64,000 nt of DNA from Burkholderiales bacterium (GCA_035762345.1 DASTPE010000079.1:408-64407); one strand, 5' to 3'; positions 4,285 to 64,000 are shown, counted from the stretch's first letter. The notes: generated by a model from the letters alone, not told the origin. Made by a program: numbers and translations.

Positions 4285-4339
4285 GAAAGTCTACGCCGCG
4301 CGCCGCGTGCGGCCACCGTTTTTACCCGCCCGCTACGAT

Positions 4340-23333: not shown

Positions 23334-24032
23334 CTACACATAGATCATCTTGCGCGTCATTCCGCCGTCGACCACGAAGTTCTGCCCGGTGATGAAGCCC
23401 GCGGCCTCGGACAGCAGGAAAGCGACGAGCTCGGCGACATCGTCGTCGCGCCCGACCCGGCCGACCGGGTGCTGGGCGTGGTCCCTGGGGCGCACCGCCT
23501 GATGCGCGATCCAGCCGGGGCTTACGCAGTTCACGCGGACCTTGGGGCCGAAGCTGACCGCGAGCGCATGCGTGAGTCCGACAAGCCCGGCCTTCGCCGC
23601 GACGTAAGGCTCGGTATCGGGCTCCGACTGCAATGCTCGGGTGGATGCGATGTTGACGATCGCACCGCGTGCGCGGCGCAGGTGCGGGGCGGCGTGCTTC
23701 GTCATCAGGAATGCGCCGCTCAGGTTTACGCCGATGCGCCGGTTCCATTCGCGCAGGGGAAGCTTTTCCACCGGGCCCGTATGGGGATTCGCGAGCCCAG
23801 CGTTGTTCACCAGGCCGTCGAGCCGGCCGCAGCGCTTGACCACGGCGCGCACACACGCGCGTACCTGCGGCTCCCTGGAGACGTCGCATTTGACGAAAGG
23901 CAAGCCTTGCCAACGACGATCGGCCGCCTTCACGTCCGCGACCGCGACCTGCCAACCGCGCGCGACGAGAGCGAGCGCGATCGCGTGCCCGATGCCTTGC
24001 GCGCCGCCCGTCACCAAAGCGACTTTGTCCAC
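23334..24032 (-). CDS. short-chain dehydrogenase/reductase (SDR)
   Basis: GTG start preceded by AAGGGAGG. Rossmann motif VTGGAQGIG and catalytic YVAAK. The upstream part of the track ORF has no SDR homology. Confidence 0.88.
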
Positions 24033-24101
24033 GGGAGCCTCCCTTGGCGATTCTATTTGGACTAGACTTGCCCTCGGGGACCGGCTCGCAAGGAGGGCGC
24101 C

Positions 24102-24536
24102 ATGCAAGTGAAGGAGATCCTGCGCGTCAAGGGAAGCCGGCTGGTCGGCATCGACCCGGCAAGCCGGGCGGCGGACGCGGTGGCGACGATGGCAGGCGAA
24201 AACCTCGGCTCGCTCGTGGTCATGGAGCAGGGCCGCATGGTCGGCATGCTGACATTCCACGAGTTGCTGCGCGCTCTCGCCTCGCGCGGCGGCGCGCTCG
24301 GCGAGGTGAAGGTGGCCGAAATCATGCTGCGCAATCCCGTCACCGCAGCGCCCGACATGGAAGTGAACGACCTGCGCCGCACAATGATCGATACCGGCGC
24401 GCGCTACCTGCCGGTGATGCAGGACGGCAGGCTCCTTGGCGTGATCTCGTTCCGCGACGTGGCGAAGGCGGTGCTCGAAGAGCAGGACTTCGAGAACAAG
24501 ATGCTGAAGGGCTACATCAAGAATTGGCCCGCCTGA
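24102..24536 (+). CDS. CBS-domain pair protein
   Basis: 144 aa with two CBS motifs ([22 protein letters not shown]; [19 protein letters not shown]). Confidence 0.85.
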
Positions 24537-50183: not shown

Positions 50184-50904
50184 GCTTCGCCAGCGCCTCG
50201 CGGTCGAGGATCGAGATCTCGCGGCGCGAAACCTCGATCACGCCTCCGGCGGCGAACTGGCGCAGCAGGCGCGACAGGGTTTCCTTCTTCACTCCGAGCC
50301 GCGCCGCGACCAGCGTCTTGCTGACCGGCAGGCGCACGACCGTACCGCCGTTGCCGTCGCTGTTACCTTCGGGAGAGTTTGCAAGCGCGCCGAGGTACGA
50401 CGCCAGGCGCTGCGCGCCGCGCTGCATCGCAGACTCGACTTCGGCAAGCAACTCGAGCGCGTGCTCGGCGAGCAGCAGCGCCACTGCGCGTCCAAAGCGC
50501 GCATCGCGGTCCATGAGAGCGAAGATCGCCGCTACCGGGATCACGACGAGCTTCGAGTCGACGAGCGCGATCGCCCCGCTGTGGCTGGGGCGCCCGAGGA
50601 GCGAGGTCGCTTCGCCGAACGTTTGCCCCGCAGGGACGAGATGGAGCACGCGCTCCTCGCCGTCCTGGCCACGCAGGCTGAGCTTCACCGCGCCATAGGC
50701 AAGTCCGAACACTCCCGGCAGCCTCGCGCCGCGCTCCACGATGATCGTGCCCCGCGGGGCGCTTATCACCCAGCACTGCTTGATGAGCGAGCCGAGTTGG
50801 GCGGGGGCTACGTCACGGAAGATGCGCAGTCGCGGCACAAGCCCCTGCACGAGCCGCGCGTCCAGAACTGCACTAGCCACCGGGCGAACTACCATGTCGT
50901 TCAT
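50155..50904 (-). CDS. Crp/Fnr-family transcriptional regulator (no Fnr-type Cys cluster)
   Basis: Trimmed to MNDMVVRP (alternative ATG at 50895). cNMP-like beta-roll, and an HTH whose recognition helix KETLSRLL carries the E--SR motif of FNR/Dnr-class proteins. Only one Cys in the protein. Confidence 0.88.
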   Translation of the reverse strand: MNDMVVRPVASAVLDARLVQGLVPRLRIFRDVAPAQLGSLIKQCWVISAPRGTIIVERGARLPGVFGLAYGAVKLSLRGQDGEERVLHLVPAGQTFGEATSLLGRPSHSGAIALVDSKLVVIPVAAIFALMDRDARFGRAVALLLAEHALELLAEVESAMQRGAQRLASYLGALANSPEGNSDGNGGTVVRLPVSKTLVAARLGVKKETLSRLLRQFAAGGVIEVSRREISILDREALAKLSSSRAHSA

Positions 50905-50931
50905 ATATTGCACCGCAGCAGCGGCGCCATG

Positions 50932-50945
50932 TTGACTTAAATCAA
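50932..50945. promoter_or_regulatory. FNR/Dnr-type box TTGACTTAAATCAA
   Basis: Read directly. The box centre is about 43 nt upstream of the regulator's second ATG (50895) and 144 nt upstream of the decahaem gene. Confidence 0.6.
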
Positions 50946-50979
50946 CGATGTCAGTGTCGCCGCTATTTCGCCGAACACT

Positions 50980-50993
50980 TTGATTTAAGTCAA
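50980..50993. promoter_or_regulatory. FNR/Dnr-type box TTGATTTAAGTCAA (exact reverse complement of the box at 50932)
   Basis: Read directly. The centre lies 48 bp from the first box and about 96 nt upstream of the decahaem ATG. Confidence 0.6.
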
Positions 50994-51082
50994 CGGGCAC
51001 ATTCGATTTCGCAAGCCTGATGGGCACCGCATCGGCATCATCAGCGAAACGCCGTATCGGTTTGTGTTTGAGGGAGGACCGA

Positions 51083-52054
51083 ATGGTTATAAGAACCGCG
51101 GCCTGCATCGCCGCTGCCCTAGTCATCGCCAGCGTGCCGGCGCATGCGCAGGCACCGGCACCGCGGAAACCGGCTCCGGAAGCCGAGGTCTGCAAGAACT
51201 GCCACGCCGACTACGTCGAAAGCTACTTCAGGACGAAGCACGGCCAGGGCGGCAATGCCTTAGGTCCCGACTGCAAGACCTGCCACCTGAATTCAGAGGC
51301 GCACGCCGCCGCGGGCGGCGGCAAAGGTGCAGGCGGCATCCTCGGGTTCAATGACAGGGCCCAGCCTGCCGAGCGCAGGGCCGGCGTCTGCCTGAGCTGC
51401 CACCAAGGCAACCGCCACCTCGCGTTCTGGGACTCAGGCCAGCACCGCAAGCAGGACGTCGCGTGCAACGACTGCCATAGTCTGCACGGCACGCCCGGGC
51501 CGGGCTCAACTATCGCGCTGAAGGCGCCGAATCCCAAGGTCAGTCCCTACGTGACGACCGAGCGGCAGCTGCAGTACGAGACTTGCACGACTTGCCATCG
51601 GCAGATCCGCTCGCAGCTCCACAAGCCGTCGCATCACCCGATCATCGAAGGCAAGCTCAAATGCACCGACTGCCATAACCCGCACGGAGCGCTGTCCAAG
51701 GCCATGGTCAACGCCGAGTCGATCCCGCAGCTATGCACGACCTGCCATGCCGAGAAGCGCGGGCCGTACGTGTGGGGCCATCCGCCGGTCGAGGAGAACT
51801 GCCTGACCTGCCACAACCCGCACGGCTCGAACCATAACCGCCTCCTTGCGGAGAAGGCGCCGAACGTTTGCCAGGACTGCCATGACGCCTCGCGCCACCC
51901 CGGGACGATCTACGACGGAAGCGGCGGCTGGAACTTCTTCCCGCCGTCTACGGCACCGAACACCCGGCTCATCTCGCGCGGCTGCATCAACTGCCACTAC
52001 CACATCCACGGCAGCAATGCTCCCGCCATGCGGGGCAAGTTCTTCCTGCGATAG
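51083..52054 (+). CDS. periplasmic decahaem c-type cytochrome, MtrA/MtoA/PioA/DmsE family
   Basis: Signal peptide MVIRTAACIAAALVIASVPAHAQ. Ten CxxCH motifs (CKNCH CKTCH CLSCH CNDCH CTTCH CTDCH CTTCH CLTCH CQDCH CINCH). About 320 aa. GAGGGAGGA lies before the ATG. Confidence 0.9.
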   Translation: MVIRTAACIAAALVIASVPAHAQAPAPRKPAPEAEVCKNCHADYVESYFRTKHGQGGNALGPDCKTCHLNSEAHAAAGGGKGAGGILGFNDRAQPAERRAGVCLSCHQGNRHLAFWDSGQHRKQDVACNDCHSLHGTPGPGSTIALKAPNPKVSPYVTTERQLQYETCTTCHRQIRSQLHKPSHHPIIEGKLKCTDCHNPHGALSKAMVNAESIPQLCTTCHAEKRGPYVWGHPPVEENCLTCHNPHGSNHNRLLAEKAPNVCQDCHDASRHPGTIYDGSGGWNFFPPSTAPNTRLISRGCINCHYHIHGSNAPAMRGKFFLR

Positions 52055-52063
52055 GAGGCGGAC

Positions 52064-54184
52064 ATGAAACCTAGACTCCTCTCGGTCCTGGTCGCAAATC
52101 TCTTCGTCGCCGCCGCACCTGCGCTCGCCCAGGACGCGATGGAAGTGTCCGGGTCGGTGAGCGCAGGAATCCGCTATATCGATAACAACGCGGCCGATCC
52201 CTCGAAGTTCACCGAGTACCGCGACCTGGAAGACGGCACCTCGGGTATTTTCGGGTTCGAGTTTCGCGGCCGCAGCCAGAACAATTATTTCAATGCCTAC
52301 GGCGAGAATCTCGGGAACGACGACCAGTACCTTGACTTGAATGGCGGCCGCTACCAGACGTTCAAGTACCGCATCTACAGCGACCACCTGCGGCACAACC
52401 TCGGCTCGGGCCCGGGCGCGCTTTCCCCCTTCTCCGGAATCGGCGGTGCAACTATCACTGCGCCTTTCCCCCTGCCCGCGGTGGGAACGTGGAACAGCTT
52501 TGACCATGCCTACAAGCGCCGTGATACCGGCGGCATGTTCGAATGGCAGAAGGCTTCGCCGTGGTATTTCCGCGTCGACGCGAACGAGATCCGGCGAGAT
52601 GGCATCAACGTTTATGCCGGGGCGAACGGGACGAGCCCGGGCAACGGCTTCACCGACCTGCCGGTGCCGATCGACTGGCTGACGCGCAACTACGCGGCCG
52701 AGGTCGGCTACTCGACCAAGCGCGGACATATGGCGGTCAACCTCAGCTACAGCACGTTCGAGAACGAGAACCAAGTGCTGCGCTGGTCGAACCGCTTTTT
52801 CGCCAACGGCCTGGACACCACGGTGCTGCCGCCGGATAACGACCTCATCCGCGTCGCGGTCAACGGCAACCTGAGACAGCTGCCGATCGATTCGACCCTC
52901 GCGGGGCGGTTCACCTACAGCAAGCTGACCAATTCCGTCCCGATGCAGCTCAACATGCTTTCCACCGGCGGCGCGTTCCCGGCCACGAATCCGAGCCAGG
53001 GTAACTTCGAGGGCGACGTCGTCAAGTACACCCTCGGGCTGGCGTTCAACTCCCGACCGACCCAGGCGCTCGACACCAAGGTCTATTACAACTGGATCAA
53101 GGAAGAGAACGACTCGACGCACATGAACTTCGTGCCGGGGACCGGTCTCACCGGCGGGACGTGCACGACTGTCGATTGCTCGAACCATCTCTTCGGGTAC
53201 GAAAAGCACCAGATCGGAGCCGAAGCGGGCTACCGCCTGACGCGTGCGAACAAGTTCACCGGCGGGCTCGAATGGACCGATATCGATCGCGAGCGCGAGG
53301 ATTTCGACCACAACGAAGAGTGGCGCGCGTTCGTCGAGTGGAAGAACAGCTCGTTCGACTGGATGACGTCGCGGATCAAGTACCAGTACATGGAGCGCAC
53401 TGGGGATTTCAACCCGAACATCCCCGTGCTTACCCAGAATCCCATGGATCTCTTCGTGCGGCGTTTCGACGTCGCGAACGTAGAGCAGAACCTGGTCAAG
53501 CTCGCCCTCGACTTCGCCCCGGCGCCGCTGTTCGACATCGGCGTCGAGGCGATCTACAAGGAGAACAAGTACAAGGACACGATCCTCGGCCGCACCGAGG
53601 ATACGCGCCACGAGCTTTACGGCAGCGTAAGCTACGGCGATCCGAAGAGGTGGCGGGTGCATCTCTTCGGTGACATCGAATACGTCAAGTTCGACTCGTT
53701 CCACCGCGTCGGCACCGGAAATCCCGATCCGGGTTCAGGATCGAACGCCACCACTTTCAACTGGGCTTCGAAGAACGAAGACGACTCCTGGCAGGTCGGC
53801 ATCGGCGCCGACTGGGCGGCGCTGCCGCGCCTGATGATCAAGGCCTCGCTCATCTACGCCGAGACCGATGGGCACACGGACTTTACGGTCGCGCCCGGCG
53901 GCCCGACGACCCCGTTCGCGCCGATCGAAGCGAGCGACGACACGACGCGGGTCTCGTTCAATCTCAAGGGGATCTATCAGCTCGACCGGCAGTGGGAGCT
54001 TACGGCCGGCTATGCCTACGAGAAATATCGCTATAGCGACATCGCCTACGACAATACGCGGTACGTGGCTCCCTTGCCGCCCGCAGGCCTTACTAACACT
54101 GCCTCGAGCATCGTCACCGGGCAGTTCTCGTTCCAGAACTACGAAGCGCACATCGCCTACCTCGTCGCGAAGTATCGCTTCTAG
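52064..54184 (+). CDS. MtrB/MtoB/PioB-family outer-membrane porin for the decahaem cytochrome
   Basis: 706 aa. Signal peptide ...AAAPALAQD. Gly/Asn/Tyr-rich amphipathic strand pattern throughout, C-terminal ...YLVAKYRF, and position directly after the decahaem gene. Confidence 0.85.
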   Translation: MKPRLLSVLVANLFVAAAPALAQDAMEVSGSVSAGIRYIDNNAADPSKFTEYRDLEDGTSGIFGFEFRGRSQNNYFNAYGENLGNDDQYLDLNGGRYQTFKYRIYSDHLRHNLGSGPGALSPFSGIGGATITAPFPLPAVGTWNSFDHAYKRRDTGGMFEWQKASPWYFRVDANEIRRDGINVYAGANGTSPGNGFTDLPVPIDWLTRNYAAEVGYSTKRGHMAVNLSYSTFENENQVLRWSNRFFANGLDTTVLPPDNDLIRVAVNGNLRQLPIDSTLAGRFTYSKLTNSVPMQLNMLSTGGAFPATNPSQGNFEGDVVKYTLGLAFNSRPTQALDTKVYYNWIKEENDSTHMNFVPGTGLTGGTCTTVDCSNHLFGYEKHQIGAEAGYRLTRANKFTGGLEWTDIDREREDFDHNEEWRAFVEWKNSSFDWMTSRIKYQYMERTGDFNPNIPVLTQNPMDLFVRRFDVANVEQNLVKLALDFAPAPLFDIGVEAIYKENKYKDTILGRTEDTRHELYGSVSYGDPKRWRVHLFGDIEYVKFDSFHRVGTGNPDPGSGSNATTFNWASKNEDDSWQVGIGADWAALPRLMIKASLIYAETDGHTDFTVAPGGPTTPFAPIEASDDTTRVSFNLKGIYQLDRQWELTAGYAYEKYRYSDIAYDNTRYVAPLPPAGLTNTASSIVTGQFSFQNYEAHIAYLVAKYRF

Positions 54185-54196
54185 TCCCCGCGTCGC

Positions 54197-54222
54197 GGCC
54201 CGGGTGGTCAACCGCCCGGGCC
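54197..54222 (+). promoter_or_regulatory. intercistronic GC stem-loop (8-bp perfect stem)
   Basis: GGCCCGGGtggtcaaccgCCCGGGCC, 13 nt after the porin stop. No T-run follows. TTATACAAT follows at about 54232. Confidence 0.45.
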
Positions 54223-54272
54223 CACGATGCGTTATACAATCCAATCGGCTCTACACCCCGGAGGGAGACTTC

Positions 54273-54554
54273 ATGAAAGCAAGCGTGCTTGTGATTGCCG
54301 CTGCGGCGGCGCTGGCGGCGGGTGCGGCGTATGCCCAGTCGGGCGCGGACGTGCTCAAGTCGAAGGGCTGTCTGAACTGCCACGAGGCCGACAAGAAGAA
54401 GGTCGGGCCTGCGTTCAAGGACATCGCGGCCAAGCAGAAGGGCAAGCAGGCCGAGCTGGTCGCGAAGCTAAAGGAAGGCAAGGGCCACCCGAAGATCGCC
54501 GCGTCGGACGCCGAGCTGAACGCTGCCGTGCAGGCGGTCCTCGCGACAAAATAG
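54273..54554 (+). CDS. MtoD-like class I monohaem cytochrome c (no Met in mature protein)
   Basis: Signal peptide MKASVLVIAAAAALAAGAAYAQS, a single CLNCH and a GKGHPK segment. The mature sequence contains no methionine. Confidence 0.85.
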   Translation: MKASVLVIAAAAALAAGAAYAQSGADVLKSKGCLNCHEADKKKVGPAFKDIAAKQKGKQAELVAKLKEGKGHPKIAASDAELNAAVQAVLATK

Positions 54555-54572
54555 TCTGAGAAGCGCCGCCGC

Positions 54573-55199
54573 TTGGATTCCCGGGTCGCACTCATAGCGC
54601 TCGCCGCGTCGGCGGCGCTCGTCATGCCTCAGCAGAGTGCGGCACAGGCGCGCAGCGGCAAGGAAGTCGTCGAGTCCACCTGCATTACCTGTCACGGCAG
54701 CGGCGCGCAGGGCGCGCCGAAGATCGGCGACCGCAAGGCCTGGAGCCAGCGCGCCAACCAGGGCTTGTCGAGCCTTACGCTGAGCGCGATCAAGGGGATC
54801 CGCAACATGCCGCCGCACGGCGGCAACACGGGTCTCACCGATCTCGAGCTCGCCCGCGGCGTCGCCTACATGGTGAACGCCTCGGGCGGCAAGTGGACCG
54901 AGCCTGCGAGCGCTACCGAGCTCAAGGCCGAGCGCGGCGGCGCGCAGGTGGTGAAGGCTCAGTGCTCCAAATGCCACCAGGACGGCAAGGGCGGGGCGCC
55001 GAAAATCGGCGATCGCGAAGCGTGGAGCAAGCGCCTCAACCAGGGAATCGACCGGGCGGTGAGCTCGGCGATCCACGGCCACGGCGGCATGCCGCCGCGC
55101 GGCGACAAGGCCGACCTGACCGACGGCGAAGTACGCGCCGCGATCCTCTACATGTTCAATCCGAAGACGCCGCCCAAGGCCGAGGCGAAGAAGAAGTAA
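54573..55199 (+). CDS. dihaem cytochrome c5-type protein
   Basis: Signal peptide. Two repeats of C(I/S)(T/K)CH...GAPKIGD(R)(K/E)AWSxR...MPP(H/R)G. Confidence 0.85.
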   Translation: MDSRVALIALAASAALVMPQQSAAQARSGKEVVESTCITCHGSGAQGAPKIGDRKAWSQRANQGLSSLTLSAIKGIRNMPPHGGNTGLTDLELARGVAYMVNASGGKWTEPASATELKAERGGAQVVKAQCSKCHQDGKGGAPKIGDREAWSKRLNQGIDRAVSSAIHGHGGMPPRGDKADLTDGEVRAAILYMFNPKTPPKAEAKKK

Positions 55200-55204
55200 G
55201 GCGG

Positions 55205-56341
55205 TTACTTGGCCGGCTGCGCGGCGTAGGTCGCGGACAGGCTTTCGATGATGCTGTCGCTGTAGGGCAGGCTCATCTTGTGCATCATCGAACTCTCGCG
55301 CCTGTCGTCCCGATAGGCTCTCAGTGCCATGATCAGGTAGTCCCGGTCCTGCCCTTTGATCTTGGGTACGACCATGCCCGGGATCTCGGCCTCTGCGCCA
55401 TGGCAGCGCTCGCAGCGCTCGGTGAGGTCTTTGACCAGGGTCTGGCCTTTCTCCGCAGCTTTCGATTTCTGCACCGAATAGAACGCGGCGATGTTCTGGA
55501 TGTCCTTTTCGCTCAGCCCGGTGACGTAGAGGCGCATGTTCTCCCGCTTGCGGGTCGTGCGGTAGGCCTTGATGGCGTCGACGAGGTAGCGCGCGTCCTG
55601 CCCCGCGAGGCTTGGCGTGCTGGTGTCGGTGCTTACGCCGTTCGCGCCGTGACATCCACCGCATACAGCGCTTAAAGGCTCGCCCGCCACCGGGTCGCCG
55701 AAAGCCGACACGCCGCGAGGCGTCGGCGCTTGGGAGGCGAAATAAAGCGCGAGGCTCTCCATGTCGAGCCTGGACATGCCCGGCAACAGGGCGTGCATTG
55801 GCGCCGCCTTGCGCTCCTTCTTCAGGTATTCCTGGATTGCGATGACGAGGTACTGCGGTTGCTGGCCGGCCAGGCTCGGCGTTCCGGAAATCTTGCTGTT
55901 GCCGTCGTCGCCATGGCACTTGGCGCAGGCGCTCGCCAGGGCCTTGCCCCGGTCATACGGGGAAACCTGCGTCGCGTCCTTTGCGGCGCCGGAGTCGACG
56001 GGCGGCAGGCTCGCGTAGTAAGCGGCGAGGTTGACTGCGTCCGGGTCGCTCATGTGCGCCGCGATTTCCCTCAGCGCCGCGTGCGTGCGCTTGCCTTCCT
56101 TGTAGGCCTTCAGCGCCGCCACGAGGTAGCGCTCGCGCTGAGCCGCCAGGTGCGGAATGGCCGGCGCGGTGCCTTTGCCGTCCAAGCCGTGGCATGCCTT
56201 GCATTCGCGCTCGGCGAAGGCCTTGCCCGCGGCAAGATCCACCGGGACCGGCTTCCCGACTCCCGCTTTCGTTGGCGCGGAATCCTGGTCGGTGCAGCCG
56301 AGCAGCGCGATCAATAGCAACCCCAGCTTGAGACTTTTCAT
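55205..56341 (-). CDS. tetrahaem c4-type cytochrome lipoprotein (four class I domains)
   Basis: Start at MKSLKLGLLLIALLGC (lipobox; GAGGAA 4 nt upstream). Motifs CKACH, CAKCH, CGGCH and CERCH, each followed by P(S/H)LAGQ...YL...Y..G.R. Confidence 0.85.
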   Translation of the reverse strand: MKSLKLGLLLIALLGCTDQDSAPTKAGVGKPVPVDLAAGKAFAERECKACHGLDGKGTAPAIPHLAAQRERYLVAALKAYKEGKRTHAALREIAAHMSDPDAVNLAAYYASLPPVDSGAAKDATQVSPYDRGKALASACAKCHGDDGNSKISGTPSLAGQQPQYLVIAIQEYLKKERKAAPMHALLPGMSRLDMESLALYFASQAPTPRGVSAFGDPVAGEPLSAVCGGCHGANGVSTDTSTPSLAGQDARYLVDAIKAYRTTRKRENMRLYVTGLSEKDIQNIAAFYSVQKSKAAEKGQTLVKDLTERCERCHGAEAEIPGMVVPKIKGQDRDYLIMALRAYRDDRRESSMMHKMSLPYSDSIIESLSATYAAQPAK

Positions 56342-56362
56342 GGATTCCTCGAGCACGATTGG

Positions 56363-57166
56363 TCAGCCGACGTCGGTAGCCTCGCCTTCCTGCCTCTGCA
56401 GGACCACCGATGGCGGATGGGAGAACCACATCTGGTACATCGACACCACCCACATGAAGGCGAATGACAGGCCCATCAGGGCGCCGCCGGCGATCACCAC
56501 CCAGGCGAACGGGTGGTACACCTTGGTGAAGTACCACGACCCGATGTCCATCGTGAGAGCGACGAACGGGAACGCGACGACGGTGCACTTGAACCAGACC
56601 GGCCGCACATAGGCGTGGCTGAAAATTGTTCCGAGGATGAAAAAGACAAAAGTCAGGCCGAAGAAGTGGATGTGCGAGACGCGCACGAGCGTGAAGAGGG
56701 CCGTACCGGTATCGCGCTCGATGACTTTCTGTACGTTGTCGTAGCCGTTCAGGTTCGGCAGGTGCGGATTGCTACCGTCGTGGCACGCCAGGCAGCGCCG
56801 GTCGAACGTCGTGCGGATCTCCTTTTCGTAGCGCGCGCGCTCGCCGCCTTCCTGCGCCCAGGAGACGAGCGTTGTGAGCTCCTCGCGTGGCAGCATTCCC
56901 GCCATCGATCCGCGCAGCGCCGCTTCGAGGCGCGAGCCCTTGCCGCTGCCGCTGTACGCGATCACCACGTCCTCGTAGGACAGCGTACGCGGATTGCCGT
57001 CCTTGCCGGAGTAGGTGTGGAACAAGTAAATCATGGCGAAGAGGTACGCAGTCCCGAGGATCAGCAAGGTCGCCGTATACAGCACGCGCAGGCTGTACGG
57101 CAGCTCCGAGAAATGCCGATAAAGGCGGTGCAGCGGCACGTCATTCACATTCGCGTCCTTTTTCAC
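56363..57166 (-). CDS. integral membrane protein with one CxxCH in a soluble loop (uncharacterised)
   Basis: GTG start overlapping the upstream stop (GTGA). One TM segment, then a roughly 110-aa loop containing RRCLACHDGSNPHLPNL, then three or four further TM segments. 267 aa. Confidence 0.7.
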   Translation of the reverse strand: MKKDANVNDVPLHRLYRHFSELPYSLRVLYTATLLILGTAYLFAMIYLFHTYSGKDGNPRTLSYEDVVIAYSGSGKGSRLEAALRGSMAGMLPREELTTLVSWAQEGGERARYEKEIRTTFDRRCLACHDGSNPHLPNLNGYDNVQKVIERDTGTALFTLVRVSHIHFFGLTFVFFILGTIFSHAYVRPVWFKCTVVAFPFVALTMDIGSWYFTKVYHPFAWVVIAGGALMGLSFAFMWVVSMYQMWFSHPPSVVLQRQEGEATDVG

Positions 57167-58359
57167 TTGCCGGCTTTCTTGCCCGCGGGTGCCGGCACGA
57201 TCACGTAAGTCACGGCACGGGCGGTCTGGCGCGCATAGTGGGCCGAGATATCCTTCACATCGCTCTCGCTCATTAATGCGGACATGGCGGCCATGGCCGT
57301 ACTCTTGCGCGCCCCCTTGCGGTAGTCGTGCAGCACCTGCTCGAGCCAGTCGGCGCGCTGCGCGGCGAGGCGCGGCATGAGCGGGTCGGTGCTGTTGCCG
57401 TTGGGACCGTGGCAGCGGTCGCAGCGCTCCGACCACTCAGCAAGCGTCAGCGGGCGGCGTACGTTGAGCGGCTGTGGCTGCTGGGCCGCGTAGTAGGCCG
57501 CGATGTCGTGCATCGCCTTCTCGTTGAGATCCGCCGCCGCTCCCTTCATCGATTCGTCCTTGCGCGAGCCGTCCTTGTACGCCTGGGTGGCAGCCGCCAG
57601 GTACTGCGCGTCCTGGCCGGCGAGGCTCGGTGTCGCCGGATTTCCGCTGACTCCCTGATCGCCGTGACAGGCGCCGCAGGCCGCCGCAGCCTTCTTGCCC
57701 GCTGCTGCGTCGCCGACGGCAGGGGTCTGCGCCCGAGCGGGTTTTTGTAGTGCATAGAAGAGCGCCAAGTTGCCCAGGTCGGCGTCGCTCACGCCCGCGG
57801 CCAGTGCCTTCATCATGTCGTTAGGGCGCTGGCCGCTCTTGTAGGCTGCCATCGCCGCAATAAGATACTTCGGATCGAGAGCGACCAGGCTCGGCATGCC
57901 GGGCATCGCGCTGACGCCGGCCTCTCCGTGGCAGGCTCCACAGGCCGCAGCCGCCGCCTTGCCCGCCTGCAACGGATCGGATTTGGCCGCAGCCGCTTTG
58001 CCGGGTGCCGCCGCGGGACGCGGCGGATCGAGGCTCGCGTAGTAGGCCGCCACTTTGACGAGCGCATCGTCGCTCAAGTACCGCACGATTCCGGTCATGG
58101 CGCCCTGCACGCGAGCGCCATGGCGATAGGCCCGTAGCTGGAGGTCGAGATACGCCGCGCGCTGCGCGGCGAGGTGCGGCACGCCCTTGGTTGCGCTTAC
58201 TCCGTTCGCGCCGTGACAGCGTGCGCAGGAGGCTTCCGCGATGCGCTTGCCCTCCGCGATCTCGACCGTCGTGGCATACACGGCCCGAAGCTCGTCCTCT
58301 GCAGGACTTGCGGCGAGTGCCGCAGTGCTGACCAGCAAGCCCGCCCACAGGATCTTCAT
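57163..58359 (-). CDS. tetrahaem c4-type cytochrome (four class I domains)
   Basis: C-terminal 398 aa of track ORF 57163..59466. Signal peptide MKILWAGLLVSTAALAAS. Motifs CARCH, CGACH, CGACH and CDRCH. ATGA overlap with the NrfD-like gene. Confidence 0.85.
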   Translation of the reverse strand: MKILWAGLLVSTAALAASPAEDELRAVYATTVEIAEGKRIAEASCARCHGANGVSATKGVPHLAAQRAAYLDLQLRAYRHGARVQGAMTGIVRYLSDDALVKVAAYYASLDPPRPAAAPGKAAAAKSDPLQAGKAAAAACGACHGEAGVSAMPGMPSLVALDPKYLIAAMAAYKSGQRPNDMMKALAAGVSDADLGNLALFYALQKPARAQTPAVGDAAAGKKAAAACGACHGDQGVSGNPATPSLAGQDAQYLAAATQAYKDGSRKDESMKGAAADLNEKAMHDIAAYYAAQQPQPLNVRRPLTLAEWSERCDRCHGPNGNSTDPLMPRLAAQRADWLEQVLHDYRKGARKSTAMAAMSALMSESDVKDISAHYARQTARAVTYVIVPAPAGKKAGK

Positions 58360-59531
58360 GATGCGGTCTTGTGCTCCCAAGGGGGAAGGAGCCGGGTGAT
58401 TCCCAGCAATACAACCAATGGCGCAACGACCAGCGCGAGGGCACTGATCAAGCCTTCCTTGCCGAAGATCTGCATCGGGTACTCGAGCAGCCCCTTGCCC
58501 GTCTTCGAGATCTCTTGGCCGCCGATGACGACGTTCCAGCGCATCATGAACACTGAGAGCAGCACCAGGCAGGCGCTCAGCGTGACGCCCAAGACCAGCG
58601 CTCTGCCCGCGGTGCCGCGCCAGATCATATAGGACAGCCACGCAAGCGGCACGATCGCACCGATACCGAATTGCAGCACGAAGTACGGGATCAGGAGCGG
58701 CCCGGTCACATAGGCCATGATCATCTCGATGCCTTCCCGGGCCTTGTAGACGATGTTGGCGAATTCCAGCCCCTCGAGAACGAAGGCAACGATGATGAAT
58801 GCCCACACGGTATAGGCGAGGCCCTTCACGCACGCGAGATCGATCGGGACCCTGCGCAACTTGCACGACAGCACATAGAGCACGATGAGCAGCGCCACGC
58901 CGGAGATGATGGCCGAGAACAGGAACACGAGCGGCATCAGGTCCGAAGACCACCACTCGCGCGACTTGAGGGAGCCGAACACGAAACCGACGTAGCCGTG
59001 CAGGCCGTGCGCGCCGGGGATGCCGGCGATCGCCAGCCAGAAGATCCATTTCCGGTCGACGCGCAAGGCGCCCTCCGAAACGTCGTACGAGCCGAGCGTG
59101 AGCACGCGGTAGAACGCGCCCAAAGGTCCTTTTCTCTTCTGCGCCTGCGCCACGATATAGGGGCGAAACGCGAACCACGTCTCCACGATCAGCAGCACGA
59201 TGTAAAAAGTCGCGAAGTAGCCGAAGGCCGCCATGGCCGAGGTCCAATGCGGCGTGAGCAGGTTGTTGAAGGCGCGCTCGGGATGGCCAAGATGCAAAAG
59301 CAGCGGCAGCGGCACGAATAACATGAAGCACAGCGAGGTCAGGAGCGCGAGGTGGGCAACGGGCTTCAGGCGCTCGAAACCGAACACCTGGTAGAGGCTC
59401 GACACCGTAAACGCCCCGGCGACCAGGCCGGTGATGTACGGGTAGACGACGATGGCCACCGACCATTCGATCACGGTCTCGTTCGGGTACACCCAGCCGG
59501 CGTAGGGAGCATAGTGGATGAGAGGTTCCAC
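58356..59531 (-). CDS. NrfD/PsrC/ActC-family quinone-interacting membrane subunit
   Basis: 391 aa with about 10 TM segments. N-terminus MEPLIHYAPYAGWVYPNETVIEWSVAIVVYPYITGLVAG is typical of polysulfide-reductase NrfD-type proteins. Confidence 0.88.
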   Translation of the reverse strand: MEPLIHYAPYAGWVYPNETVIEWSVAIVVYPYITGLVAGAFTVSSLYQVFGFERLKPVAHLALLTSLCFMLFVPLPLLLHLGHPERAFNNLLTPHWTSAMAAFGYFATFYIVLLIVETWFAFRPYIVAQAQKRKGPLGAFYRVLTLGSYDVSEGALRVDRKWIFWLAIAGIPGAHGLHGYVGFVFGSLKSREWWSSDLMPLVFLFSAIISGVALLIVLYVLSCKLRRVPIDLACVKGLAYTVWAFIIVAFVLEGLEFANIVYKAREGIEMIMAYVTGPLLIPYFVLQFGIGAIVPLAWLSYMIWRGTAGRALVLGVTLSACLVLLSVFMMRWNVVIGGQEISKTGKGLLEYPMQIFGKEGLISALALVVAPLVVLLGITRLLPPWEHKTAS

Positions 59532-60361
59532 TAGCTCACCTCCTTGTCGATGCCGACATAGAACACGTTCGGCCCATTGCCGGTCTCCGGCTTGAGCACG
59601 TGTACGCGGTTGTTGCGGACGAACAGGCTAATCGCGCTTTGCTTGTCGTTGAGATCACCGAAGACGCGTGCGCCGACCGGACAAGCGTCGACGCAGGCGG
59701 GCTGCAGGCCGCTGGTGATGCGGTGATAGCACCACGTGCACTTGTCGGATACGCCCTTTTCTTCGTCGAAGAAGCGCGCGCCGTAGGGACAGGCCTGCAC
59801 GCAGTACCGGCAGCCGATGCAGTATTCATGGTCGATGAGCACCACCCCGTCTTTGGCCTTGTAGGTCGCGCCGACCGGGCACACCTGCACACAGGGCGGG
59901 TGCTCGCACTGGTTGCACAGCTTGGGGACGAAGAAGGCCTTCTCGACTTTCGCGTTCTGGTAGCGGTTGGCGAACCGGTACTCGCGCTGCGAGCCGGAGG
60001 CGGCGATGTTGACCGGGTCGGCGTGGCTGTCGATGCGCGGCCTCGCTTCTCCCTCCAGGTAGACGTAGCGCTCCACCCAGGTGCGGAAATGATGCGCGGT
60101 GAGCGGCACCTTGTTCTCGACCTTGCACGCCTCGACGCAACGCAGGCAGCCGATGCATTTCGTGGCGTCGACGCCGAAAGCCCAGCGGTGCTTCGTCCAG
60201 TCGTAGTCCGCCGTCGGAAAGGATTTCGGGGGCGTAACCGATTCGGTTTTCGCGCCGACTTTGGCGAGCGATGCCGCCGTGCCCGCAGCTACGGCAGCAG
60301 CGCCGAGCTTGCGCAGAAAGTGGCGCCTGGCAAGCAATCCGCTGATTGCCTCGCGCTTCAC
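59531..60361 (-). CDS. Tat-exported 4x[4Fe-4S] ferredoxin subunit (NrfC/PsrB/ActB2-like)
   Basis: GTG start overlapping the upstream stop. Twin-arginine leader LLARRHFLRKLGAAAVAAG. Four Cys clusters (CIGCLRCVEAC, CNQCEHPPCVQVCP, CIGCRYCVQACP, CTWC...CVDACP). No molybdopterin-like domain. Confidence 0.88.
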   Translation of the reverse strand: MKREAISGLLARRHFLRKLGAAAVAAGTAASLAKVGAKTESVTPPKSFPTADYDWTKHRWAFGVDATKCIGCLRCVEACKVENKVPLTAHHFRTWVERYVYLEGEARPRIDSHADPVNIAASGSQREYRFANRYQNAKVEKAFFVPKLCNQCEHPPCVQVCPVGATYKAKDGVVLIDHEYCIGCRYCVQACPYGARFFDEEKGVSDKCTWCYHRITSGLQPACVDACPVGARVFGDLNDKQSAISLFVRNNRVHVLKPETGNGPNVFYVGIDKEVS

Positions 60362-61386
60362 GGCTTCTTCCCGCAGCCCTGCGCGGCGTAGTACGCGGCG
60401 AGGTTCGCGATGTCGGCGTCGCTCAGGCCCCTGACGACGCCGGCCATCATCGGATCCTTGCGCAGGCCGGCCCTGAACGCCTTGAGGGTGTTCGCGAGGT
60501 ACACCGCCTTCTGGGCGGCGATGTTCGGCCACCCGGGATTTGCTCCGACGCCCGTCTCGCCGTGACAAGCGGAGCAGTTCTTCGCCAGAGCCTTGCCCGC
60601 CGCGGCGTCGCCCGTCGCGCTTGCGCTCGCCGCGGGCTTGCAGCTCAAGGCAGCGTAGTAGGCGGCGAGATCCTGGATCTCCGCATCGCTCAAGGTCTTC
60701 GCCACCGGCGACATCATGACGTCGGACTGGGCGCCGGACCTGTAGGCACCGAGGATGGCGACCAGGTAGGCGGCGTTCTGGCCTGCCAGGTTGGGCCAGC
60801 TGTCGTTCGGGCTGATTCCATCGGCGCCGTGGCAGCCGGCACAGCTCTCCGCGTGCTTCCTAGCGCCCGAGGCGGCGTCGCCGCCCGCCGGCGCCACGAC
60901 GCCGGCGAGCTTCGGCGCATGCGGGTTGTGGCAGACGGCGCATTGCTGGCCCGCGCCGTGCTGGGCGAGATCGATCTGCGGCTGCGTGCGCGGCCTCTCG
61001 GCCATGCGCTCATGGCACAGAGCGCAGAGCCGCCGGGTGTCGGAAGGAACCGGCAGCTTTCCCTCCTGCGGATGCTTCTGCGCCGCGCCATGACAGACTT
61101 CGCACGCCACCGTTTTGTGGTTCGCGGCAGACCACTGGGCGTGGCGCTCGCTGTGGCAGCCCTGGCAATAGGCCGAGGTCCGGAACACCGGCTCGTGGGC
61201 CGCGATCTCGGCCACTGAGCCGGCGCGGTAGTGGCCGAACTCATAGAAGGACTCGGCAGTGAAATACCACTTCGCGACCAGGGCGGCGGCAAACCCCGCA
61301 CCCAGCAGCACGAGCAGTCGGAAGACGTGCCTAGGCAGCGCCGGCCCCCAGCCATAAAGTGAACTCCCGTCCCCCGACCGTAGCAA
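60358..61386 (-). CDS. membrane-anchored hexahaem cytochrome c (4-haem NrfB/ActA-like module + two c4-type domains)
   Basis: TTG start and an N-terminal TM segment (FRLLVLLGAGFAAALVA). Motifs CQGCH, CEVCH, CALCH and CAVCH (paired-CxxCH type), then CAGCH and CSACH in class I domains. Confidence 0.85.
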   Translation of the reverse strand: MLRSGDGSSLYGWGPALPRHVFRLLVLLGAGFAAALVAKWYFTAESFYEFGHYRAGSVAEIAAHEPVFRTSAYCQGCHSERHAQWSAANHKTVACEVCHGAAQKHPQEGKLPVPSDTRRLCALCHERMAERPRTQPQIDLAQHGAGQQCAVCHNPHAPKLAGVVAPAGGDAASGARKHAESCAGCHGADGISPNDSWPNLAGQNAAYLVAILGAYRSGAQSDVMMSPVAKTLSDAEIQDLAAYYAALSCKPAASASATGDAAAGKALAKNCSACHGETGVGANPGWPNIAAQKAVYLANTLKAFRAGLRKDPMMAGVVRGLSDADIANLAAYYAAQGCGKKP

Positions 61387-61429
61387 GCCGCTCCCGACGC
61401 CGCTTGATCTACGTCAAAGGGGAAGGACT

Positions 61430-63589
61430 TCAGCCGGCGCGCACGAGGAAGCCCCGCAGTACGAGCAGGAGCAGAATCAGCCCGATCGTTATCAGGACAA
61501 AGCCGAGGAAGGCCGAGCCGATCGTCATCGGCCGCGATGGCGCGTTCACCAGGTGCTTCTCGAGCTCGCCGGACTTCTTCAGCCGTTCGTACTCGAGCGC
61601 GTGCTCACGCCTGAACTCGTCGAGCGACACCGAGCCCGTGAACATTACGATGTCGAGCGGGAACTTGTCCGGCCGGAAGTGGTTGTTGAAGAAGTGCACC
61701 GTGAACAGGAAGACCGCGGCGAGCACCGCCTCTTCTCCGTGCACGATGGTGGCGACGTTGAATATCCATCCCGGCAGGATCGACGCCGTGGCCTCGGGGA
61801 CTGCGAGCATGAAGCCGCTGCCGCCGATGATCGCCATGCCCCAGAACACCGCCCAGTAGTCGAACTTCTCCCAGTAGGTCCAGCGGTCGAATTGCGGGCG
61901 CGGCCGCATGCCGACGAACCACTGGAACATGGCGATGATGTCCTGCAGGTCCTGCCAGTTCGGCACCAGCGAGTTTGGCCCGAACCAATCGAACGTGCGC
62001 AAGCGCGGCAGGATGCGCGCGCCCACCACATAGACCAGGTGGATGAAGAAGATCCCAAGCATGAGGGTGGCGGCGACGCGGTGCACGACCGCGGCCTCTT
62101 TCGGGCTGCCGAACATGCGCACCACAAGCTGCGCCCAGGGCATCTCGGCGAAGAACACCGCCATCCCGGTGAGGACAAGCGTCATCACGCTAATCGCGAA
62201 GATGAGGTGCGCAAGCCGCCACATCGGCGCGAAGCGCTGGAACTGCTTGCCCTGCGGGTGCAGATGCAGGCCGACGACATGCGGGCTCGTCTTTCCTTCC
62301 TTGCGATCGCGCCATTCGCGGTAGAACCAGAGCGCGGTGTGCGTCCAGAAGAAAACGAACACGCCGATGAGCAGCGCGACCATGAACTTGGTTGCGACCC
62401 ACACCTGCGGATAACGCTCGAAGTCATACGGCGTGGCGTGCGGCTGAAAGCTCACGAAGCCCGGGGTCGCGTTCTTGTGGCACTGCTGGCAGGTCGCGAG
62501 GCGATTGTTGGGATGAACGCGTGAGGCGGGATCGGCTACGCGCTGCACGTTATGCCCGCTGTGGCAGTCGGAGCACTTGGCGGTATACGCGTAGCCCAGC
62601 CGGTGCACCTGGCCGTGATAGGTGTGGATGTAGGTGCGGTAGCTCTCGACGTGGCAGTTGCCGCAGTTCTGCGTGATCGCCACTTTCGTGGACGCTGCCG
62701 CCGGCGACTGGATGTCGTGCGTGGTGTGGCAGTCGGAGCAGATCGCCGCCACCGGGTTTCCTTTTTGCAGCACTTCGACGCCATGCACGGAGTTCTTGTA
62801 GACGCCGACCTGCTTCTCGTGGCACTTGCCGCAGACCAGCGGAATGCTCAGGCGCCAGTCGGCGCGCCCGGTGCTGCCGATCGGGTAAATGTAATGCGCA
62901 TCGTGGCAGTTGTAGCAGGTCGCGTTGGTGCGCGACTGGTCGTCGCGCCGCGGCCGCGCGTGCACCGACTTGAGATAGCGGTCGATCTGCTCGACCACCA
63001 CGCCGAGGCGCTCGTAGTCCTTCCTGCGGTCCTCTTCCAGGGTCCTCCACGTGTCCTGGTGGCACTGGATGCAGCCCACGCGGATCGGGCCGGTGCGCTT
63101 GTGCGGGATCTCGGTGATGTCGGTGTGGCACTCGACGCATCGGCGCTTCGCATGCACGCTGAGCTCGAACTTCTCCTTCACCACGTGGAGCGGGCGCGGC
63201 CTGCCATCGGGTCCGGGCATGGTAAAGCCCTCGTTGCCGTGGCAGCCGAAGCAGGTCGCGTTGTCGAGCGGCATCGCCGGTGCCGCGGCGGCTTCGGGTT
63301 TCGGCTTTCCAGCGGGCTTCTGCTGCAAGTACGCGACGATGGCCTGCAGCTCTCCTGCGCTGGCGTCGACCGGCATCGGATGGCCCTTGCCGGCGCGCAG
63401 CGCGCCGATCAGCTTGGATTCGGCGCCCCGGTACTTCGCCGCGGCCTCCCGCAGCGCCGGGCCCATCTTCTTCTCGTCCAACGCGTGGCAGCCGAGGCAA
63501 CCTTTCGACTGCAGAAGCGCCTCGCCGGATTGCGCACGCGCAAGCGGCGTGAATGCAATCAACGCCGCCGCCAGGACCCAGACCCGCAT
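61430..63589 (-). CDS. decahaem c-type cytochrome fused to a C-terminal 6-TM cytochrome b-like domain (CbcL-like)
   Basis: Trimmed to MRVWVLAAALIAFTPLARAQ (GGAGG upstream). One class I domain (CLGCH) plus nine further CxxCH motifs, then six hydrophobic helices with conserved His (RLAHL, VVHRV, FIHL, IVHGEE, TVHFFNNH). 719 aa. Confidence 0.85.
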   Translation of the reverse strand: MRVWVLAAALIAFTPLARAQSGEALLQSKGCLGCHALDEKKMGPALREAAAKYRGAESKLIGALRAGKGHPMPVDASAGELQAIVAYLQQKPAGKPKPEAAAAPAMPLDNATCFGCHGNEGFTMPGPDGRPRPLHVVKEKFELSVHAKRRCVECHTDITEIPHKRTGPIRVGCIQCHQDTWRTLEEDRRKDYERLGVVVEQIDRYLKSVHARPRRDDQSRTNATCYNCHDAHYIYPIGSTGRADWRLSIPLVCGKCHEKQVGVYKNSVHGVEVLQKGNPVAAICSDCHTTHDIQSPAAASTKVAITQNCGNCHVESYRTYIHTYHGQVHRLGYAYTAKCSDCHSGHNVQRVADPASRVHPNNRLATCQQCHKNATPGFVSFQPHATPYDFERYPQVWVATKFMVALLIGVFVFFWTHTALWFYREWRDRKEGKTSPHVVGLHLHPQGKQFQRFAPMWRLAHLIFAISVMTLVLTGMAVFFAEMPWAQLVVRMFGSPKEAAVVHRVAATLMLGIFFIHLVYVVGARILPRLRTFDWFGPNSLVPNWQDLQDIIAMFQWFVGMRPRPQFDRWTYWEKFDYWAVFWGMAIIGGSGFMLAVPEATASILPGWIFNVATIVHGEEAVLAAVFLFTVHFFNNHFRPDKFPLDIVMFTGSVSLDEFRREHALEYERLKKSGELEKHLVNAPSRPMTIGSAFLGFVLITIGLILLLLVLRGFLVRAG

Positions 63590-63613
63590 ACCCCCGCCTC
63601 CCCGGTGGATTAT

Positions 63614-63627
63614 TTGACGCCCATCAA
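63614..63627. promoter_or_regulatory. FNR/Dnr-type box TTGACGCCCATCAA
   Basis: Read directly, in the divergent region between the CbcL-like operon and the hemerythrin gene. Confidence 0.6.
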
Positions 63628-63670
63628 TAATGGACCCGGGCGCCGACCGCCAGCAAGTTCCCCACCGCCT

Positions 63671-63684
63671 TTGACCAGGATCAA
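63671..63684. promoter_or_regulatory. FNR/Dnr-type box TTGACCAGGATCAA
   Basis: Read directly. The centre lies 57 bp from the previous box and 41.5 nt upstream of the hemerythrin ATG. Confidence 0.6.
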
Positions 63685-63718
63685 TCCTCCGCCAGCGCAC
63701 GCTGGTAGCGTCCAAGCC

Positions 63719-64000
63719 ATGGCAGCGCTCAATCCAATCGCCGTGTGGCACGAGGAGCACGTCTACTTTAACCAGCTGCTGCACCTCCTGCAGCGCGAGG
63801 TCGACGTGTTTCACACCGGAAACCGGCCGAACTACGAGCTGATGTTCGACATCGTCTCGTACCTGCGCGAATACTCCGACCGGTTCCATCACCCGCGCGA
63901 GGACGAGGCGTTCGCGCGCTTGGCGAAGCGCTGCCCGCACATGGAGCTGCCGCTTGCGCGTCTCGCGCAGGAGCACCGCGTGATCGCGCAGTCGGGCGAG
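63719..64000 (+). CDS. hemerythrin (HHE cation-binding) domain protein, 3' end outside window
   Basis: Hand-translated open frame running to the window edge: MAALNPIAVWHEEHVYFNQLLHLLQREVDVFHTGNRPNYELMFDIVSYLREYSDRFHHPREDEAFARL...QEHRVI. H/E ligand spacing is typical of hemerythrin-like proteins. Absent from the track because it is unterminated. Confidence 0.7.
   Translation, partial: MAALNPIAVWHEEHVYFNQLLHLLQREVDVFHTGNRPNYELMFDIVSYLREYSDRFHHPREDEAFARLAKRCPHMELPLARLAQEHRVIAQSGE

Follow-up and report, generated by a model that had tools for sequence, protein, structure and literature searches.

The window analyzed here, a 64,000-nucleotide stretch of a Burkholderiales bacterium (GCA_035762345.1 DASTPE010000079.1:408-64407), carries near one end a 13-kb cytochrome locus in which an earlier note, made from the sequence alone, had picked out four TTGAC-N4-ATCAA boxes. 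The genes of the locus were mapped by frame analysis of third-codon-position G+C (GC3) together with Pfam and NCBIfam models (Table 1). A plus-strand operon (51083..55199) encodes a decahaem cytochrome, a porin, a monohaem cytochrome c and a dihaem cytochrome c, and its first two genes, a periplasmic DmsE/MtrA-family decahaem cytochrome followed by an MtrB/PioB porin, make it a porin-cytochrome module of the MtoAB/PioAB/MtrAB type. The convergent minus-strand genes from 63589 to 55205 form one operon headed by a ten-haem cytochrome c fused to a cytochrome b561-like domain (the multihaem/cytochrome b gene), whose ATG at 63589 is preceded by the Shine-Dalgarno (SD) sequence GGAGG. A Crp/Fnr-family regulator gene lies divergent from the plus-strand operon, and a hemerythrin gene lies beyond the start of the minus-strand operon. 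Each of the five transcription units of the locus, the regulator and hemerythrin genes included, is preceded by a box.

Both strands of the whole window were scanned for TTGAY-N4-RTCAA, with 100 dinucleotide-preserving shuffles as the null. Five exact matches were found as compared to 0.09 expected, and none of the 100 shuffles reached five. All five are intergenic and fall within 13 kb, between 50.9 and 63.7 kb, while the exhaustive scan returned no exact box in the remaining 51 kb of housekeeping genes (hflX, hflK, purA, rnr, dnaB, aroC, hom, thrC, an RND pump and a PAS histidine kinase). The boxes are real, and chance is excluded. The earlier note had estimated that chance would yield far less than one copy per 64 kb in DNA of about two-thirds G+C (65.6% as measured), which the 0.09 expected from shuffles bears out. 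Its four boxes were likewise found where it had placed them and with the sequences it had given, including the within-pair spacings of 48 and 57 bp (start to start) and the exact reverse complementarity of boxes 1 and 2, which extends across 15 nt. Its inventory missed the fifth (61404–61417), which lies in the 43 nt that separate the multihaem/cytochrome b gene from the cytochrome gene after it and marks a predicted internal promoter. A scan allowing one mismatch added only three sites (17298 and 26484, intragenic; 23890, intergenic) against 2.2 expected, within the range of chance. The sole intergenic one of these, 23890–23903 (TTGACGAAAGGCAA), lies after an MgtE-type transporter gene and ∼170 nt 5′ of a CBS-domain gene (24066–24536), and is probably a chance occurrence.

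Orthologue loci were collected by a genome-contig scan, by exact-protein look-ups and by one metagenome scan with peptide patterns built from the invariant helix-turn-helix of the regulator, the last recovering loci of 45–84% identity; together they comprise ∼90 loci and 650 kb at 45–100% protein identity. The genome-contig scan yielded a single close relative (L001), the intergenic region of which is 91% identical, too close for footprinting, and which stops short of box 5. In every locus found by exact-protein look-up, the DNA separating the regulator gene from its divergent neighbor contains one or two exact boxes, and of the 73 metagenome loci that extend 194 bp or more upstream of the regulator gene, 69 carry exact boxes there (one to three each). 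Box density was ∼50-fold higher in regulator upstream regions (122 in 21.9 kb) than elsewhere in these loci (46 in 412 kb), where it still far exceeds the chance density of the window. The exact boxes of L004–L016, for which gene calls were checked, are all intergenic; two 30%-identity paralogue loci (L002 and L003) contain no exact box. Individual sites are conserved as well: orthologues carry a box at the position equivalent to box 1, the orthologous box of box 2 is the best conserved of the set (consensus GTTGATCTAGATCAAC), the 57-bp pair ahead of the multihaem/cytochrome b gene is shared by L004 and L010, and L010 (2602) and L012 (1337) also have a box in the gap that follows this gene.

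The family consensus from 186 unique sites is TTGAyCTAGrTCAA, and sequence and conservation support the assignment of the boxes as putative FNR/Dnr/FixK-type operators (TTGAT-N4-ATCAA; TTGA-N6-TCAA core). An asymmetric pairing of one TTGAC with one TTGAT half-site, which the earlier note had described as shared by its boxes, holds for five of five in the window but is not a property of the element: the C/T, T/T and C/C combinations number 98, 46 and 42 among the 186 sites, as compared to 50:25:25 for random pairing, and the asymmetry is uninformative. Target-side boxes are nearer to the perfect palindrome GTTGATCTAGATCAAC, whereas regulator-promoter boxes read TTGAyCTGCrTCAA (inner CTGC versus CTAG), a difference that might reflect discrimination by two proteins or mere shared ancestry.

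Distances from the boxes to promoter-like elements and start codons are fixed. An xAxxxT hexamer lies exactly 21 nt past the box in 115 of 367 unique site-directions (31%), as compared to ∼2.5% at other offsets. With a −10 element at −12 to −7, this offset would center the box at −40.5/−41.5, the class II position, and these values are implied for boxes 1, 4 and 5, with box 2 similar and box 3 not fitting (all start sites being predicted). The distance from box center to the ATG of long high-GC3 open reading frames showed a sharp peak at 40.5 nt (18 cases) and 41.5 nt (16 cases), within which the ATG follows the −10-like hexamer by 6 to 8 nt, consistent with transcripts predicted to be leaderless. 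The families in this peak include POR gamma, rubrerythrin, HemN-like, Usp, FrdA, c4 cytochrome and hemerythrin, joined in a group of 45–47% identity by the regulator gene itself. A consensus sigma-70 −35/−10 promoter was found in neither divergent region of the window, as expected of activator-dependent promoters.

At the regulator promoter, the equivalents of the predicted −10 hexamer in orthologues of 54–85% identity are CAATAT, CAGTAT, CAGCAT, CATCAT and CATCTT. Transcription is predicted to start at ∼50897–50898, 2 to 3 nt before the ATG at 50895; the alternative ATG at 50904 lies 5′ of this predicted start, and NCBI has the protein begin at GTG 50880. ATG 50895 is the probable start codon, favored by the conserved geometry of the promoter. 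Automatic starts for this gene (50880–50904) disagree and often cross the operator or the −10 element, as in L004 (10001), where a 269-aa call includes the box at 10019, and L008 (605), where the ATG falls inside the CAATAT hexamer. In orthologues at 64–72% identity, the regulator leaders are ∼12–16 nt with an AAAGG SD. On the mtoA-like side, the AGCCTGAT block is held 21 to 28 nt past box 2 despite differing spacer sequence and matches TATAAT weakly; transcription would start at ∼51028, giving a predicted leader of ∼55 nt to ATG 51083. Past box 5, the −10 equivalents at the same offset are TACGGT in L010 and TAGGGT in L012, with the ATG of a c4-type cytochrome 6 nt on. Past box 4, the extended −10 is kept as TGgTAGCGT in L010 (ATG 8 nt on) and as TGaTAGCGT in L004 (ATG of POR gamma 7 nt on); the N terminus of the hemerythrin, LNPIAxWHEEH, permits no alternative start, and its mRNA is predicted to begin at ∼63718–63719 and to be leaderless. 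The earlier note had measured 43.5 nt from the center of box 1 to ATG 50895 and 41.5 nt from that of box 4 to ATG 63719, correctly, and had proposed class II activation with leaderless or near-leaderless transcripts for the regulator and hemerythrin genes. The conserved 21-nt hexamer offset and the ATG peak support this proposal, which is still a prediction.

Box 3 behaves differently. Its center lies 31.5 nt from the multihaem ATG at 63589, which the gene needs for its signal peptide, and the box is kept in L010 (at 30.5 nt) and L004. A class II role for either neighbor was considered by eye and rejected: no −10-like hexamer occurs 21 to 24 nt from the box on either side, the start would land inside coding sequence, and a distance of 31.5 nt from the ATG rules out class II activation of the multihaem gene. 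A candidate promoter (TTGCTG, 18 nt, CATTAT), identical in the window, L010 and L004 though below the consensus-scan threshold, lies between boxes 3 and 4 and might, at low confidence, direct a start near 63620, the center of box 3. The box at 63614 was thus not borne out as an activator site; it overlies the putative core promoter and may, tentatively, be an operator in a repressing or modulating position. In E. coli, FNR sites that overlap a start site repress, as at fnr itself. The block GGGGAACTTGCTGGCG, conserved between boxes 3 and 4, was inspected by eye as a sigma-54 −24/−12 promoter and rejected, since neither L004 nor L010 keeps the −24 GG. A comparable layout is seen in the 45–47% identity group (L074, L075, L078, L079, L081, L086, L087, L089), where one box serves two divergent genes: it lies 40.5 nt from the ATG of POR gamma (leaderless, activating position) and 6 nt ahead of the TATATT −10 of a DUF2237-thrC operon, a promoter-overlapping and possibly repressing position.

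The regulator carries the recognition helix KKETLSR (E--SR) and a single Cys, Cys41, in agreement with the KETLSR motif and missing Cys cluster reported in the earlier note. An alignment of 14 sequences, 55–100% identical to that of the window, shows an invariant helix-turn-helix, LPVSKTLVAARLG[VI][KT]KETLSRL, and the E--SR helix is invariant across the ∼90 orthologue loci. Its invariance, with residues that read an FNR box, argues that the regulator would read a conserved FNR-type site. The same 14 sequences share one invariant Cys (KQCW/KHCW) and no invariant His, and the protein lacks the four-Cys [4Fe-4S] signature of FNR proper (C-x2-C-x5-C plus a central Cys). The best solved-structure match is Pseudomonas aeruginosa DNR (3dkw; E 8e-20, 29% identity), in which QPETFSR aligns with KKETLSR; the position of DNR His187, a haem ligand, is Arg in all family members. 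NCBIfam models place the protein below membership of Fnr (36.7 bits, cutoff 228), FixK (30 bits, cutoff 300) and FtrB (PRK09392 equivalog, the best model at 89.2 bits, cutoff 211); no Dnr model was among the NCBIfam matches, FixK2 was absent from the Protein Data Bank matches at E ≤ 0.01, and JGI labels several orthologues “dissimilatory nitrate respiration regulator.” By these comparisons, the regulator belongs to an as yet unassigned Cys-less Crp/Fnr subfamily. A cyclic nucleotide is an improbable ligand, because the phosphate-cassette Arg is not conserved (by eye), its place here being taken by His. A protein identical to the regulator is on record from a “Burkholderiales bacterium” metagenome-assembled genome (MAG). 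No Crp/Fnr paralogue was found in the window by tblastn of the regulator; in a 46%-identity group, a second Crp/Fnr paralogue lies directly 3′ of the anchor regulator (L096 10314–10853, L097 10845–11384).

Genes preceded by boxes in relatives encode POR, hemerythrin, rubrerythrin, HemN, a UbiE-like methyltransferase, lactate permease, LutA, FrdA, Usp and KatG. Automatically picked box-downstream frames are noisy in high-GC DNA, several being antisense artefacts, and only Pfam-confirmed clusters or collection gene calls were used. The hemN, frdA, usp, POR, rubrerythrin, hemerythrin and lactate genes point to an Anr/FNR-like low-oxygen regulon. No nir, nor or nos gene was found among the box-associated genes of the window, and none was identified beside the ∼200 boxes in ∼650 kb of related loci, where annotation is partial (cluster representatives). 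The regulator gene adjoins DUF2237-thrC-hom in most loci (of the set L004, L006, L008, L010, L012 and L014–L016), with other neighbors in L010, L012 and L015. The divergent cargo varies from mtoAB with c4 cytochromes to NapC/NirT-type and monohaem cytochromes or a 498-aa protein without a Pfam match, and frdABCD, a UbiE-like methyltransferase, Complex-I-like 30/49-kDa subunits, lutABC and POR genes are often nearby; the neighborhood looks like variable anaerobic and redox genes around a fixed regulator.

From these sequence features we infer which protein binds, what it responds to, where transcription starts and in which direction box 3 acts. The five boxes would be bound as operators by a dimeric activator of the Crp/Fnr family whose recognition helix is of the E--SR type. 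At four class II promoters (those of the regulator gene, the mtoA-like operon and the hemerythrin gene, and the internal promoter at 61404), the dimer would sit ∼40.5–41.5 bp upstream of a start served by a −10 element only, and the hemerythrin and regulator promoters would give rise to leaderless or near-leaderless mRNAs. Box 3, over the core promoter of the multihaem/cytochrome b gene, would more likely limit or repress. The likeliest binder is the adjacent Cys-less regulator, which would hence activate its own gene. Judged by the box-bearing genes of relatives, the regulon would concern low-oxygen or anaerobic redox metabolism rather than nitric oxide (NO), and the regulator would probably be a second-tier factor, like Dnr, FixK and FtrB, whose level, and perhaps activity, is set by a primary oxygen sensor such as a canonical FNR. 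Very probably the cluster is switched on by a transcription factor of the low-oxygen type; the fuller reading, a low-oxygen regulon with the local Cys-less regulator as direct and self-activating binder, is the one we favor, with some reserve. For the single regulon of the earlier note, the extent is supported by a box at every unit, the regulator and hemerythrin genes included; its Dnr/NnrR-like NO sensing is unlikely.

Several points weigh against the favored reading. The regulator has no recognizable sensor residues (one invariant Cys, no invariant His), the −10 block on the mtoA side (CCTGAT/CCCAAT) lacks the usual A at position 2, and box 3 is without a clear role. Every −10 element and transcription start here is a prediction, and the related loci are partly akin to one another, so that counts are not independent events. 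A canonical FNR, which would read the same sequence, is encoded 0.8 kb upstream of a 59%-identity orthologue of the Cys-less regulator (L035 1839–2612; L038 605–1252). This protein shares 42% identity with E. coli FNR and has the N-terminal motif CSTCNLRELC...C (C-x2-C-x5-C), a further, central Cys and the helix ETVSR; a response-regulator gene precedes fnr, and no exact box lies ahead of the fnr gene in L035/L038. The lineage can therefore have both proteins, and a cascade from FNR to the local regulator is possible. The earlier proposal that the boxes are operators read by the adjacent regulator accordingly stands as to FNR-type operators and an E--SR helix, and is weakened as to the reader, which could be such an FNR.

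The principal alternative, unlikely in our estimation yet to be taken seriously, is that an oxygen-sensing FNR/Anr encoded elsewhere in the genome is the main binder, with the local regulator one regulon member, like dnr under Anr, that reads a subset of the sites or none. The bona fide FNR beside the orthologue speaks for it, as do the classic FNR/Anr targets among the box-associated genes of relatives (hemN, usp, frdA, hemerythrin, lactate), the sensor-poor local protein, the overlap of Anr and Dnr sites in Pseudomonas and the somewhat different inner sequences of regulator-side and target-side boxes. It fits less well with a DNA-reading helix that is invariant in the 14 aligned sequences, to 55% identity, and with boxes that accompany the regulator gene in 69 of 73 loci; the 64-kb window contains no FNR gene, which says little on the rest of the genome. 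Binding by the local regulator and binding by an FNR are not mutually exclusive, and they are combined in a further reading that we consider improbable: an uncharacterized Crp/Fnr subfamily that directly senses a cue of extracellular electron transfer (Fe(II), haem or periplasmic redox) a tier below FNR, with division of sites and repression at box 3. Two E--SR proteins would then split the sites, near-perfect GTTGATCTAGATCAAC boxes on the cytochrome side and TTGAyCTGCrTCAA at the regulator promoter, and the regulator would activate leaderless class II promoters while box 3 holds down the multihaem/cytochrome b gene. Were this so, the ratio of electron-transfer modules would be set by the regulator.

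A Dnr/NnrR-like sensor of NO (or haem) with the locus as its dedicated regulon, the version given in the earlier note, appears quite improbable. DNR is the best solved-structure match, the JGI label on several orthologues names nitrate respiration, the protein has no Cys cluster, and the DNR/HcpR group senses NO via haem; but identity to DNR is only 29%, the His187 position is Arg with no His invariant in the family, no nir, nor or nos gene was identified within the partial annotation of the related loci, and the boxes extend to genes of low-oxygen function (hemN, frd, POR, usp, lactate). That the boxes are mainly repressor sites, through which a Crp/Fnr-type protein shuts the cluster off under some condition, would account for box 3 over the multihaem core promoter and for the shared box just ahead of the DUF2237-thrC −10 in the 45–47% group, and is nevertheless very improbable: most boxes lie at the exact class II position of promoters without a −35 element, and such promoters are normally inactive without an activator. 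Chance matches or nonfunctional remnants have only the short length of the motif in their favor and are scarcely credible, being effectively refuted by the enrichment in the window, by positions conserved in orthologues down to 45% identity and by the fixed spacing to −10-like hexamers.

Among documented systems, the nearest is the iron-oxidation operon pioABC of Rhodopseudomonas palustris TIE-1, which has two FixK boxes, the proximal one in a class II position (−44.5), bound by purified FixK (PMC3050613). The two systems share a Crp/Fnr regulator without an Fe-S sensor and two TTGA-N6-TCAA boxes before an operon that encodes a decahaem cytochrome of the MtrA type and an MtrB/PioB porin; pio is induced by anoxia, and FixK also controls other anaerobic genes. 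They differ in host (an Alphaproteobacterium as compared to a Burkholderiales MAG), in the regulator, which falls far short of the NCBIfam FixK cutoff, and in gene arrangement, fixK being under FixLJ and not beside pioABC, whereas the regulator gene here, preceded by a box of its own, is transcribed away from the operon. Leader lengths differ too, 177 nt for pioA and a predicted ∼55 nt here, where several regulon members are predicted to be leaderless.

In the Anr-Dnr cascade of P. aeruginosa, as proposed here, a second-tier Crp/Fnr regulator without a Cys cluster recognizes an FNR-type box, and such a box precedes its own gene; DNR is the best structural-database match of the regulator. The Anr regulon of Pseudomonas includes hemN, an oxygen-binding hemerythrin and lactate metabolism; Anr activates dnr, and the sites of the master and second-tier regulators overlap. 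DNR binds an FNR-like box, and orthologues exist in Betaproteobacteria. In contrast, Dnr senses NO by haem and drives nir, nor and nos, none of which was identified here, where the His187 position is Arg and the targets are extracellular-electron-transfer cytochromes and general anaerobic genes. Class II FNR promoters of E. coli resemble those predicted here in having TTGAT-N4-ATCAA near −41.5, no −35 element and an activator with an E--SR helix; they differ in that the present regulator lacks the four [4Fe-4S] Cys ligands and that many promoters here are predicted to give leaderless mRNAs. An oxygen-sensing system also switches on Cys-less Crp/Fnr paralogues in Caulobacter (FtrB, under FixK) and in Dinoroseobacter shibae (FnrL with three Dnr regulators; PMC5398030). 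FtrB is the best-scoring NCBIfam model for the regulator, although at 89 bits against a 211-bit cutoff and with different targets. A full-text search returned no paper naming MtoA, MtoB and FNR together, and a CRP-domain protein appears in a Gallionellaceae pangenome paper in a gene list only.

Other features of the window were noted. The six-haem cytochrome gene has an ATG (61355) behind a good SD, but not in phase with its high-GC3 coding sequence; adding one G to the G5 run at 61349–61345 restores the frame and yields MAGGPALPRHVFRLLVLLGAG..., a proper signal anchor. The sole in-frame upstream start, TTG 61386, lies ahead of the predicted transcription start. ATG 61355 is probably the true start after the frameshift, and the discrepancy is probably a homopolymer assembly error or a genuine frameshift. 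Between the porin and monohaem cytochrome c genes, the region 54189–54240 contains a highly stable GC hairpin (−37 kcal/mol, z −5.5) with its loop near GTCAACC, followed by GCGTTATACAATCC, and a −10-like TACAAT lies at 54235–54240. The GTCAACC ... GCGTTATACAAT layout recurs before the homologous gene in L001, L004/5, L010, L019, L022, L025 and L028; the hairpin region contains no FNR box and might serve as an internal promoter or in RNA stability. Nothing in 49.5–64 kb matched Rfam at E ≤ 0.1. Some 46 kb from the cluster, 1246–4290 encodes a large hybrid histidine kinase that combines five PAS domains with a receiver domain and might sense redox state or oxygen; no connection to the boxes was found.

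Table 1 Boxes, predicted promoter elements and genes of the cytochrome locus. Coordinates are those of the 64,000-nt window.
Feature	Coordinates	Strand	Sequence or basis	Remark
Box 1	50932..50945		TTGACTTAAATCAA; minus-strand reading TTGATTTAAGTCAA	Exact match; proximal box, regulator gene promoter
Box 2	50980..50993		TTGATTTAAGTCAA	Exact match; rightward promoter of mtoA-like operon
Box 5	61404..61417		TTGATCTACGTCAA	Exact match; predicted internal promoter for six genes 3′ of multihaem/cytochrome b gene
Box 3	63614..63627		TTGACGCCCATCAA	Exact match; near multihaem/cytochrome b gene
Box 4	63671..63684		TTGACCAGGATCAA	Exact match; class II box of hemerythrin promoter (predicted)
Predicted −10, regulator promoter	50905..50910	-	CAATAT	21 nt past box 1
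Block at −10 position, mtoA-like operon promoter	51014..51021	+	AGCCTGAT	AGCCCAAT in orthologues
Predicted −10, internal promoter	61377..61382	-	TACGGT	21 nt past box 5; predicted start ∼61370, then SD GGGAG (61368–61364), ATG 61355
Candidate multihaem promoter	63627..63656	-	TTGCTG (63656–63651), 18 nt, CATTAT (63632–63627)	
Predicted extended −10, hemerythrin promoter	63703..63711	+	TGgTAGCGT	21 nt past box 4; ATG 63719 7 nt on
Crp/Fnr-family regulator	50155–50895/50904	-	Pfam cNMP_binding + HTH_Crp_2	
DmsE/MtrA-family (MtrA/MtoA-like) decahaem cytochrome	51083–52054	+	TIGR03508, 225 bits (cutoff 192)	
MtrB/PioB porin	52064–54184	+	Pfam MtrB_PioB, 261 bits; TIGR03509, 232.6 bits	Just below TIGR03509 cutoff of 240
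Small monohaem cytochrome c	54273–54554	+	Gene map (GC3, Pfam, NCBIfam)	
Dihaem cytochrome c	54573–55199	+	Gene map (GC3, Pfam, NCBIfam)	
Tetrahaem c4-like cytochrome	55205–56341	-	Pfam, CxxCH count	
Membrane protein	56363–57133	-	Pfam	
Tetrahaem c4-like cytochrome	57163–58362	-	Pfam, CxxCH count	
NrfD-like membrane protein	58356–59531	-	Pfam	
4Fe-4S protein	59531–60343	-	Pfam	
Six-haem cytochrome	60358–61386	-	Pfam, CxxCH count	
Ten-haem cytochrome c fused to cytochrome b561-like domain	61430–63589	-	10 CxxCH, Pfam Ni_hydr_CYTB, signal peptide	
Hemerythrin	63719..64000	+	Pfam Hemerythrin, E 7e-8	Cut off by window end

To our knowledge, the regulation of MtoAB-type iron-oxidation and electron-uptake clusters in Betaproteobacteria is largely unknown. 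The mechanism, an FNR-type box at −41.5, is textbook and the kind of control conventional; what is new is the link of FNR-type boxes to an MtoAB-type cluster in Burkholderiales, together with the set of promoters predicted to be leaderless. The locus offers a concrete and testable wiring of five operator sites, predicted starts and a candidate regulator found widely in Burkholderiales metagenomes from soil and sediment. Several gene starts are corrected where automatic callers had run through operators, and the predicted leaderless class II promoters make up a clean set in one proteobacterial lineage. The wiring would tie the cluster to low-oxygen physiology, in parallel to the control of pioABC by FixK in a phototroph.

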